Part shown: positions 43,863 through 45,842 of the stretch, piece after piece
How the letters are laid out: each line of letters starts with the position of its first letter
How positions within the stretch are numbered: position 1 is the stretch's first letter
Translations under genes and position numbers: made by a program
The notes under the pieces: model-generated
Databases searched by the model: none
Told to the model about the DNA's origin: nothing
Seen by the model: only the letters and a program-made list of their open reading frames with translations
Assembly (NCBI GenBank): GCA_963977015.1
Contig: CAXBMO010000008.1
Coordinates: 160,001 to 224,000 of the forward strand
From: an uncultured bacterium
GTDB lineage: Bacteria; Verrucomicrobiota; Verrucomicrobiia; Verrucomicrobiales; DEV007
Reading direction: 5' to 3'
DNA length: 64,000 nt

Positions 43863-45842
43863 ATGGTTCTAGTTGCCGTATTCTTAGAAGACCCGAGTCA
43901 GTGGGAATCCGTCGAAGTGTCGGTTGGCCAAAAGGTTCGAATTGGTCGTCAACCGCTCCTGAAAAATGGAGAGGCTGGTTTGCGCGTGCCGTGGAGAGAT
44001 CGCGTGGTAAACCGGAACCATTCACAGGCATGGTTGGAGGGTTCCACGCTCAAAGTGGAGCGGCTTCCGGCGGTGGAGAATCGGAGTGATCCCAACAAGT
44101 TCTACTCCAACGAGCCCCATTCCCAGCGCAGCGTGTTGTCAGAGCCGCTGGTTCTCAATCTGGGGGATTCCTTCAGCATTGGCGCCCATGGTCGGACGGC
44201 GTTTTTCTGGCTTGAATCGGAAAGCGATCTCAAGGAAGTTCTCAGTGAATTGCGACCTTTTGGAGGGATTCCGGGAGAGCAGACTTCCGGGCATCTCCAG
44301 AGCATGGTTCCCTCCGTTGACTACGATGAATTGGAGGGGCTCGATGATTACAGCCTTCGTTTGCAGCTCAAATTGCTCCAGAAGGAACTCCCGGAGAAAG
44401 TGTTGAGCGGTTGGACGACCGAAGAAGAGTTGTTAACCCGTGCCGCCGATTTTCTGAAAACCGCACTTCCCGGACAACTTGGAGTTTCCGTGGCTTTTTT
44501 GGCCATCAATCCCCATCAAGCCAAGGCGACCAGCGTCACCCCGGTCAGTCCATCGGGATACACACCGATTCCGACGCCTGTTCCCGGGACCAAGCCCGTC
44601 CATTTCAAGGTGTTGAATGAGGATCCGTCGACGCGGGCTGATTTTCGGGTGAGTTCGACGCTGCTGAGCCAGATCAACCTGCAGAATCCAGGAGCAGACG
44701 ACACCTATCTTTGGAACGCGTCGGATACCAACTCGAGCGAAATTTCCGACAGCAGTATTTTGAAGCGACTCGACTGGGTTGCGATTCTGCCCGTAGCAAC
44801 GCTCGATTCCGAGACCGGGCTCTATCGCGACCGGCGGGGAAGGCCGGTTTTTCTCTACGTGGAAGCACGCCAATCCCACAGCGCGTCGGCCGTCGCCTTT
44901 GTGCCCTTTCTTCGCTTGATCGTTTCGGTGGTCGCGAGCCTTCTTTCCGCGAGGGAGCGGCAACGAATCCAGGACCAGCTTTCGGGGCACTTTTCGCCGG
45001 CGTTGCGGAGAATTCTCCACGCGGGCGACGTTCGCCAGCTCAAGCCGACGTTGGCAGAGTGTACGGTTCTGTTTTGCGACCGCCGCGGTGCCTCCCGCGA
45101 GATGGAAACGGCTTCCACCGATGAGGATATTCTGCATCAACTCGGTGAGAATCAGGAAATTGTCGGGAAGATTTCGGCGACGGTTTTCAAGCATGATGGA
45201 GTGATCACCGATTTTGCCGGTGACGGTGTCCTCGCACTTTGGGGATGGCCAGTCGAAAGCAACGATCATGCGATTCGAGCCGTGATTACCGCGGAATCGA
45301 TCGCCTATCTGCTGGCTTCGCGGGTTGAAATGGATTCCGAGGGACTGGCGGAAGCCCCGGTTCGCATGGGGATCAGCACGGGGAGAATCGCGGTGGGCGA
45401 TACCGGCCCGGTTCAACAGGTCCACATCAGCGTCTTCGGAAATGTGGTTAACTTTGGGGCGCGTTTGGAAGCGTTGGGGAAACAATTCCGGGTGCCGGCA
45501 TTGCTCAGCGAAGACACGATGGCGCTGATGAAAAATTCGGGGAAGACGGTTCGAAAGCTGTGCTTTTTGCGGCCGGCCGGGTTCAATCGTTCCTACCCAA
45601 TTTACGAACTGGTTTTGCCCAAAGCCGTTGGCGGAAGTGGCGCGAACGCCGAGCAGATCGCGGAGTATGAGGCCGCGCTCGATGCGTTTGTGCAGCAAAA
45701 TTGGGACAAATGTCGATCCATGCTCAAGGAGTTACCTGATTCGGATGGTCCAGCTCACTGGCTTAGCGAACAGGCCAGCTTCTTTGAGAAGAATGATCCC
45801 GGAAGTAACTGGCAGGGAGAGATTGCGAGCTTGATGAAGTAA
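43863..45842 (+). CDS. FHA domain + class III nucleotidyl cyclase
   Basis: N-terminal IGR...DRVVNRNH (FHA-like); cyclase motifs TVLFCD, FAGDG, MGISTG, VFGNVVNFGARLE; TPR-like tail typical of this class. Confidence 0.85.
   Translation: MVLVAVFLEDPSQWESVEVSVGQKVRIGRQPLLKNGEAGLRVPWRDRVVNRNHSQAWLEGSTLKVERLPAVENRSDPNKFYSNEPHSQRSVLSEPLVLNLGDSFSIGAHGRTAFFWLESESDLKEVLSELRPFGGIPGEQTSGHLQSMVPSVDYDELEGLDDYSLRLQLKLLQKELPEKVLSGWTTEEELLTRAADFLKTALPGQLGVSVAFLAINPHQAKATSVTPVSPSGYTPIPTPVPGTKPVHFKVLNEDPSTRADFRVSSTLLSQINLQNPGADDTYLWNASDTNSSEISDSSILKRLDWVAILPVATLDSETGLYRDRRGRPVFLYVEARQSHSASAVAFVPFLRLIVSVVASLLSARERQRIQDQLSGHFSPALRRILHAGDVRQLKPTLAECTVLFCDRRGASREMETASTDEDILHQLGENQEIVGKISATVFKHDGVITDFAGDGVLALWGWPVESNDHAIRAVITAESIAYLLASRVEMDSEGLAEAPVRMGISTGRIAVGDTGPVQQVHISVFGNVVNFGARLEALGKQFRVPALLSEDTMALMKNSGKTVRKLCFLRPAGFNRSYPIYELVLPKAVGGSGANAEQIAEYEAALDAFVQQNWDKCRSMLKELPDSDGPAHWLSEQASFFEKNDPGSNWQGEIASLMK

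Follow-up and report, generated by a model that had tools for sequence, protein, structure and literature searches.

The gene P0001 lies in a 64,000-nucleotide window of contig CAXBMO010000008.1 (the whole stretch of DNA analysed here, from an uncultured bacterium of the Verrucomicrobiales) and encodes a class III nucleotidyl cyclase in which an aspartate, Asp450, occupies the first base-selecting site. This substitution is real and conserved, and it marks an uncharacterised family of FHA-GAF class III cyclases in PVC bacteria (Planctomycetota and Verrucomicrobiales). P0001 is neither a canonical adenylyl cyclase nor a Pycsar enzyme, and it is not strictly of the Cya2 type. With moderate confidence, we propose that it is a guanylyl cyclase, producing cyclic GMP (cGMP) under the control of Ser/Thr phosphorylation.

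An aspartate at the first base-selecting site

A sequence-only reading had placed Asp where adenylyl cyclases carry the adenine-specifying Lys, and its register was right: Asp450 aligns without gaps to the Lys of CyaB and CyaC, to Glu488 of wild-type Cya2 (2w01), and to the engineered Lys of Cya2 E488K (6fht), with no Lys at this site in P0001 itself. No solved structure matches P0001 better in sequence than Cya2 (2w01; E 3.6e-13). The same reading had located the partner position in the motif HISVFG; the residues there are indeed altered, but the second base-selecting residue, corresponding to Thr in DYT, is in fact Ser523, and His521, two residues earlier, falls on the column of the Cya2 Lys. 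Asp450, His521, Ser523, and Arg407 were each found in all of 120 full-length homologues listed as the close set (46–100% identity; those named by taxon are Verrucomicrobia). The Asp450 substitution is neither noise nor a sequencing error.

The pocket was then counted in 151 more distant representatives. At site 1, 135 have Asp, 10 Lys, and 3 Glu, with a gap in 3; position 521 is mostly Lys (127) and in 7 cases His; site 2 holds Gly in 65, Thr in 62, and Ser in 18. In alignment A1, Asp stands at site 1 in all 147 rows, which were hand-picked from the close and the more distant homologues as full-length family members, with fragments, Lys-type, and Glu-type rows left out. Aligned without gaps to Cya2, the family consensus reads Asp/Lys/Gly versus Glu/Lys/Gly; the wider family is Asp/Lys/Gly-Thr-Ser, and the Verrucomicrobiales clade that holds P0001 is Asp/His/Ser. 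Of 240 rows in which site 1 is an acid, 181 have Lys at position 521, versus none of the 17 in which site 1 is itself Lys. Asp and Glu interchange at site 1 within the family (P0129, L083, L084). One planctomycete subclade (L083, L084, L085, L087, L088, L089) has exchanged the Lys at 521 for Thr, Ala, or Ser; two of its members have Glu at site 1.

In Cya2, the single change E488K results in a specific adenylyl cyclase (PMC5995499); the Glu is assisted by a Lys, and the Gly acts together with a Tyr (PMC6005667), which favours GTP (PMC4215837). In RhGC, the contact between Glu and N1/N2 is dominant for guanine, the second residue being a loosely conserved Cys or Ser (PMC7384201). The cGMP synthase PucC has Glu118 four residues before the metal-binding Asp122, together with Lys195 (bioRxiv 10.64898/2026.08.12.744502). 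Chemically, an acid is expected to be unable to donate to adenine N1 as Lys does.

Distribution and phylogeny of the acid-bearing family

A scan of GTDB genomes yielded at least 605 stretches, at least 583 of which were confirmed as family; as the scan pattern begins at the metal Asp, Asp450 was not selected for. The 78 loci kept (L001–L078) are from Verrucomicrobiales, Planctomycetota, and, in three cases, Acidobacteriota, and are to be read as kin, not as independent events. Within the Verrucomicrobiota, the gene occurs in 13 of 25 genomes of the host's family (the host included) and in none of 16 from the other families of the order; no full-length match was found in 300 other Verrucomicrobiota genomes. 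The matches at E 1e-40 in 112 of 301 genomes of the phylum were rejected as family members, since, the host aside, no E was better than 1e-69 and most of the listed matches were confined to the C-terminal half. In the Planctomycetota, 12 of 201 genomes, the centre genome included, carry the gene (only six candidates per genome scored). Four tandem FHA-GAF-cyclase copies, all Asp/Lys/Gly, are present in each of two Planctomyces genomes (L041:5239-13100 and L054:1093-9143). Three scanned Lys-type rows carry CHASE2, Cache-HAMP, or sigma/TPR domains.

Trees were computed with FastTree (259 domains) and, as a quick tree, with IQ-TREE (a 66-row subset including all 10 His/Ser rows and 9 sister rows chosen by hand, and 22 others chosen at random); the trait columns were kept in both alignments, and Cya2 was outside the tree. 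Both trees place the acid-bearing family on one side of a branch versus the Lys-type cyclases (Shimodaira–Hasegawa approximate likelihood ratio test, 100 in the IQ-TREE tree). The acid-bearing rows form one clade and therefore reflect one event, not many. Within the family, the His/Ser clade (97) is nested in the Arg407 clade (98), the remaining members of which keep Lys together with Gly or Ser. When two PycC-like proteins were used as the root, the family grouped with the Lys-type cyclases, and its nearest outside relatives in the tree are Lys/Thr cyclases.

Catalytic and phosphate-binding residues

That both metal-binding Asp residues and the Asn-x3-Arg pair are intact had been read from the sequence alone, and this was confirmed: all 120 close homologues have Asp406, Asp454, Asn530, and Arg534, and the four residues are likewise invariant in the 147 rows of A1. 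The ratio of nonsynonymous to synonymous substitution rates (dN/dS) of the cyclase domain was 0.018–0.066 in eight pairs (a rough estimate by simple counting, with dS near saturation); against L098 and L099, the sole two pairs for which this could be computed, it was below those of the FHA and GAF domains. These sequence comparisons indicate strong purifying selection on the catalytic residues. Arg501, which aligns with the corresponding Arg of CyaB, would by analogy to the Arg described in PMC7384201 bind pyrophosphate. Position 407 is usually Ile, Leu, or Val, and Arg is confined to one clade. Class III cyclases commonly, though not universally, bind phosphate through an Arg and a Lys. In RhGC and soluble guanylyl cyclase (sGC), a Lys binds the gamma-phosphate (PMC7384201, PMC6005667); the close homologues have Ala in this column in 108 of 120 cases and Lys in none. 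Arg407 and Arg570 may compensate for the lost phosphate-binding Lys. The earlier suggestion of an active enzyme therefore stands in part: the invariant catalytic residues and low dN/dS make activity likely, but not certain, with Ala572 in place of the gamma-phosphate Lys and Ala533 in place of the Cya2 Tyr telling against it.

Domain architecture of P0001

The motifs LFCD, TDFAGD, HISVFG, and VVNFGARLE all lie in frame within a single open reading frame (ORF; Table 1). An AlphaFold2 model of P0001, with A1 as input, reached a mean predicted local distance difference test score of 90.3. P0001 is a member of the class III nucleotidyl cyclase family: superposition of the model by VIA-align gave Z scores of 21.4 for CyaB (3r5g; root-mean-square deviation [rmsd] 2.4, 183 residues aligned), 20.7 for CyaC, 20.7 for Cya2, 17.3 for BcPycC, 16.6 for EaPycC, and 14.7 for AnPycC, and class III cyclases were among the Foldseek matches as well. 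In the Pfam scan, the cyclase domain alone was called (PF00211, 31.8 bits; cut-off 21.9), and the NCBIfam scan of P0001 returned nothing above cut-off. No membrane segment is annotated.

Table 1. Features of P0001 and of the facing gene (window coordinates).
Feature	Position	Strand	Basis
Whole gene P0001: FHA, GAF, transducer, class III cyclase, helical tail; 659 amino acids (aa)	43863..45842	+	ORF; AlphaFold2; full-length homologues
FHA domain, aa 1-120	43863..44222	+	Structural matches, family profile, residue counts
GAF-fold domain, about aa 160-366	44340..44960	+	Structural matches
Pro/Ser/Thr-rich insertion inside GAF, about aa 219-244	44517..44594	+	Homologue comparison, model confidence
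Cyclase transducer element-like segment, about aa 370-392	44970..45038	+	Family profile versus 6fht
Class III nucleotidyl cyclase domain, aa 393-587	45039..45623	+	PF00211, structural alignment
First metal Asp406 (45078-45080), then Arg407	45078..45083	+	Both 120/120
Asp450, first base-selecting site (Lys in adenylyl cyclases, Glu in Cya2)	45210..45212	+	Alignments, residue counts
Second metal Asp454	45222..45224	+	Alignment; 120/120
Arg501, pyrophosphate-binding Arg column	45363..45365	+	120/120; aligned to CyaB Arg
His521 (45423-45425; Lys in Cya2 and wider family) and Ser523 (45429-45431; second base-selecting site)	45423..45431	+	Residue counts, family profile
Transition-state pair Asn530/Arg534, with Ala533 at the Cya2 Tyr column	45450..45464	+	Alignment; pair 120/120
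Arg570-Pro571-Ala572-Gly573, gamma-phosphate Lys column at Ala572	45570..45581	+	Alignment to CyaB
C-terminal helical tail, aa 596-659	45648..45839	+	DSSP of model
TIR_2 and WD40 beta-propeller protein, 1065 aa	46115-49312	-	Convergent with cyclase

The N-terminal part of the model resembles FHA domains (3gqs, Z 10.5, rmsd 2.3, 96 residues aligned; 6ccd, Z 10.4; also 3hx1, Z 10.4–10.5), and the family profile matches the FHA protein GarA; Pfam did not call the domain on P0001 but did so on several relatives. Phospho-threonine-binding FHA domains carry Gly-Arg, Ser-x-x-His, and Asn motifs, of which Gly28-Arg29, His53, and Asn78 are retained in P0001. The following domain resembles the GAF domain of NifA (8jrc, Z 11.1, rmsd 3.5, 151 residues aligned) and other GAF domains. 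Its long insert is shared by 4 of the 120 close homologues, P0001 included, model confidence being lower there, and is a putative phosphorylation or FHA self-docking site. Between GAF and cyclase, the family profile places the transducer-like segment on the FGRY segment of the Cya2 fusion 6fht, which is the cyclase transducer element motif (PMC5995499). A C-terminal tail similar to that of P0001 was matched in CHASE2-type cyclases. The order of FHA, GAF, and class III cyclase is also that of Anabaena CyaD-type proteins, which are known as adenylyl cyclases. A same-genus homologue (P0005 and L099) is ∼970–1000 aa long, its cyclase lying ∼310 residues later, and Pfam matches nothing in the additional stretch.

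Genomic neighbourhood and cyclic-nucleotide genes

Upstream of the cyclase gene, the window holds nagA and a DUF6807 gene, a pair shared with L001 only; downstream, a TIR-WD40 gene faces it. That cyclase and TIR-WD40 gene form a Pycsar- or Pucsar-like pair was considered and rejected: the TIR-WD40 protein has no domain for binding cyclic nucleotide monophosphates (cNMPs), and its gene recurs in none of the 78 related loci. What does recur is a kinase. In 28 of the 32 loci of L001–L034 that have downstream DNA, an orthologous kinase-TPR gene directly follows the cyclase gene, starting within ∼300 bases; it is missing from four, and the remaining two loci end at the cyclase gene. Among L035–L078, an orthologous kinase-dCache gene is located upstream in 14 of 44 loci and a different kinase in four more. 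The host genome encodes a kinase-TPR orthologue as well (G000:C3:390968-393163, corresponding to L079:6966-9107, minus strand; 40% identity over 757 aa). A proposed link between loss of the kinase and exchange of the FHA Ser for Asn was dropped as unproven (two independent pairs, p = 1); of 42 loci, 30 have Ser with kinase, 7 Asn without, 4 Asn with kinase (one a weak match), and 1 Ser without.

Genes for cyclic-nucleotide turnover also adjoin the planctomycete-type loci. A class II cNMP phosphodiesterase gene is next to the cyclase gene in 8 of 44 (L035:5090-5845, L037, L048, L052, L055, L063, L064, and L071), and 4 of 44 have a gene for a cNMP-binding protein close by, in the form of a fusion with MscS, patatin, or a methyltransferase; the MscS fusions are near the L037 and L048 cyclases and a patatin fusion is near that of L035. 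The host genome has five proteins with cNMP-binding domains and seven further cyclase-like ORFs, of which six have Lys at site 1 and one is degenerate. The latter (G000:C7:49000-50322, minus strand) is devoid of the first metal Asp and of the Asn/Arg pair and, judging from these losses, is probably inactive. With six other cyclases of the same genome keeping the Lys and an acid replacing it clade-wide, the earlier view that P0001 is not an ordinary adenylyl cyclase holds. A scan for promoters and terminators gave results at chance level.

Comparison with characterised cyclases

P0001 shares with Cya2 (2w01) the class III fold (Z 20.7, rmsd 2.5), the acid at site 1, and the transducer element, on top of the best sequence match in the PDB; the wider family also has the Lys of Cya2 and often its Gly. 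Unlike Cya2, P0001 has Asp instead of Glu, its clade has His/Ser instead of Lys/Gly, both the Tyr at Asn+3 and the gamma-phosphate Lys are missing, and the input module is FHA-GAF, not CHASE2 with membrane helices. The bacterial Lys/Thr adenylyl cyclases (CyaB 3r5g, CyaC 1wc1, OaPAC/bPAC, and the CHASE2-type enzymes of PVC bacteria) have the fold, the metal Asp residues, the Asn/Arg pair, Arg501, and the small hydroxyl residue at site 2 in common with P0001, but differ in that Lys is replaced by Asp, the Asp/Glu/Ser of DYT by His or Lys, and VKG by PAG. Like P0001, Pucsar PucC has an acid four residues before the metal Asp, along with a basic residue, and its product cGMP is the one proposed here; by its description, PucC is a defence cyclase related to Pycsar and encoded next to CNBD-TIR or membrane effectors, whereas P0001 is multidomain, kinase-linked, and slowly evolving. 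With the PycC enzymes (BcPycC 7r65, EaPycC 8jsf, AnPycC 8jsz), P0001 shares the class III fold and the two metal Asp residues; it differs from them in the residues of the pocket, in the catalytic Arg (a Lys in 7r65), in size and architecture, and in its gene context.

The predicted product

If P0001 is a guanylyl cyclase, two copies would form a head-to-tail dimer, in which N1 and N2 of guanine would donate hydrogen bonds to Asp450 of one chain, the counterpart of the Glu of Cya2 and RhGC, and adenine N1 would not be bound. His521 would replace the Lys that supports the site-1 acid, with Ser523 occupying the loose second base site. A phospho-threonine produced by the cognate kinase-TPR protein would be the docking site of the FHA domain, the signal passing from the GAF helix via the transducer element to the cyclase dimer, and cGMP would be read by cyclic-nucleotide-binding proteins. 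The earlier prediction of a product other than cyclic AMP (cAMP) is, in this form, partly supported, with cGMP favoured; its pyrimidine variants, cCMP and cUMP, are disfavoured. Several observations weigh against cGMP, or against the proposed gating. P0001 does without three features of Cya2, namely Lys (His521), Gly (Ser523), and the Tyr at Asn+3 (Ala533), and the side chain of Asp is shorter than that of Glu by one carbon. CyaB, CyaC, and Cya2 tie as the nearest structures by fold. An acid at site 1 is no guarantee of GTP preference because mutants of Ma1120 remain ATP-preferring: in K101E and K101E/D157G, guanylyl activity rises, but kcat/Km for ATP is still higher (0.82 vs 0.05 and 1.9 vs 0.29; PMC4215837, Table 3). 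The gamma-phosphate Lys is present in only 6 of the 147 rows of A1. A literature search, with most subscription papers beyond its reach, returned neither a study of this family nor a characterised cyclase with Asp at site 1. The Ser of the FHA motif SxxH is Asn50 in P0001 (as in 24 of 120 homologues), and in the host the kinase-TPR gene is unlinked to the cyclase, lying on a different contig in front of a gene for a TPR protein. No class II phosphodiesterase was matched in the host genome (95% complete), and the phosphodiesterases and cNMP-binding domains next to the relatives' cyclases do not separate cAMP from cGMP; the latter domains were inspected as a guide to specificity and set aside as not diagnostic.

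A rival explanation is a relaxed purine cyclase, one that would still make cAMP in the cell, alone or together with cGMP, as the short Asp and the His fail to discriminate and ATP is more abundant. The Ma1120 mutants with a site-1 acid are ATP-preferring or impartial (PMC4215837), the GTP-favouring Tyr of Cya2 is gone, and the closest outside relatives are Lys/Thr cyclases. Ser523 is conservative for the Thr of bacterial adenylyl cyclases, which itself stands at site 2 in 62 of the 151 representatives; Ser at site 2 occurs in guanylyl cyclases too. Yet an Asp this firmly fixed (all of the selected A1 rows and 135 of 151 unselected ones), and accompanied by a basic residue at 521 points to selection in favour of another base, not to relaxed selection, and the host has six Lys-type cyclases; we regard this explanation as unlikely, although it is the strongest competitor to a guanylyl cyclase. 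A still smaller probability is given to P0001 being very weak or inactive, and serving as a nucleotide binder or dimeric scaffold in a kinase pathway. The loss of the gamma-phosphate Lys in most members, the odd loop after the first Asp (Arg407, Ala410), and the low Pfam score would be consistent with this, whereas the invariance of Asp406, Asp454, Asn530, and Arg534, the lower dN/dS of the cyclase against L098 and L099, and the phosphodiesterase genes adjoining planctomycete-type loci argue for catalysis.

An unusual cyclic nucleotide (cCMP, cUMP, cIMP, or cXMP), made in a pocket built unlike that of Pycsar, appears improbable. In its favour, the combination of Asp/His/Ser with Arg407 is unmatched among the characterised enzymes in the literature searched; Pycsar clades reach pyrimidine selection by different residues each time (PMC11224242); human sGC makes cIMP and cXMP too (PMC6005667); and the wider family has Gln or His two residues before the metal Asp, a column used by PycC (EaPycC Gln144). 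A pocket of the PycC type itself does not fit the sequence. The residues concerned are Tyr50/Asp94/Arg97 in BcPycC, Phe100/Arg142/Gln144 in EaPycC, and Phe60/Lys104/Phe109 in AnPycC (PMC11224242). The BcPycC columns were placed via a PycC-like protein (L094) and bPAC, the positions in the other two enzymes by distance from the metal Asp (PMC11224242); counted along the 7r65 chain, they include Tyr50, Asp52, Ala92, Asp94, Asp96, and Arg97. On P0001, Tyr50, Asp94, and Arg97 fall on Phe404, Ala452, and Gly455, and Asp450 is opposite Ala92. Asp450 was rejected as the counterpart of BcPycC Asp94, which lies two, not four, residues before the metal Asp. PycC pockets are, moreover, narrowed by bulky residues where P0001 has small ones. 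PADLOC profiles of PycC match the cyclase core weakly (best 42.7 bits), direct comparison of P0001 with a PycC gives E 0.015, and all three PycC structures score below the purine cyclases. No Pycsar or Pucsar effector (CNBD-TIR, membrane, or three-transmembrane) adjoins P0001 or occurs in the recurring neighbour clusters of the 78 loci. PycC-like genes were found in 3 of 401 genomes, one of them aligning to 7r65 with E 1.4e-50. PycC-like cyclases of planctomycete genomes (L094:1492-2726 and L095:1492-3203) form Pycsar-like loci, one gene being followed by a gene for a small hydrophobic protein and the other standing beside a putative cNMP-binding-TIR ORF. A related and similarly remote scenario is that the Verrucomicrobiales clade re-tuned its pocket a second time (Asp/His/Ser plus Arg407) and makes neither cAMP nor cGMP but cIMP, cXMP, cCMP, or cUMP, as a housekeeping signal outside antiphage defence; it would belong to a widespread second-messenger branch of PVC bacteria with FHA-GAF cyclases under the control of a Ser/Thr kinase.

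Significance

In the literature searched, bacterial cGMP synthesis is documented for few enzymes, namely Cya2, the Rhodospirillum centenum cyclases, Xanthomonas XC_0250, and Pucsar PucC, with Glu as the base-selecting acid in those cases where it is stated. Named members of the family described here carry no annotation more specific than adenylate/guanylate cyclase or class 3 adenylate cyclase. With its naturally occurring pockets Asp/Lys/Gly, Asp/Lys/Thr, and Asp/His/Ser, the family lends itself to testing the rules that govern class III cyclase specificity, and the planctomycete loci of named strains include members, for example L066. If the proposal is true, guanine could be selected by Asp as well as by Glu, and there would be a direct connection between phospho-threonine signalling and a cyclic nucleotide. 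If the family makes cGMP, several hundred loci of PVC bacteria (at least 583) would become a cGMP system.

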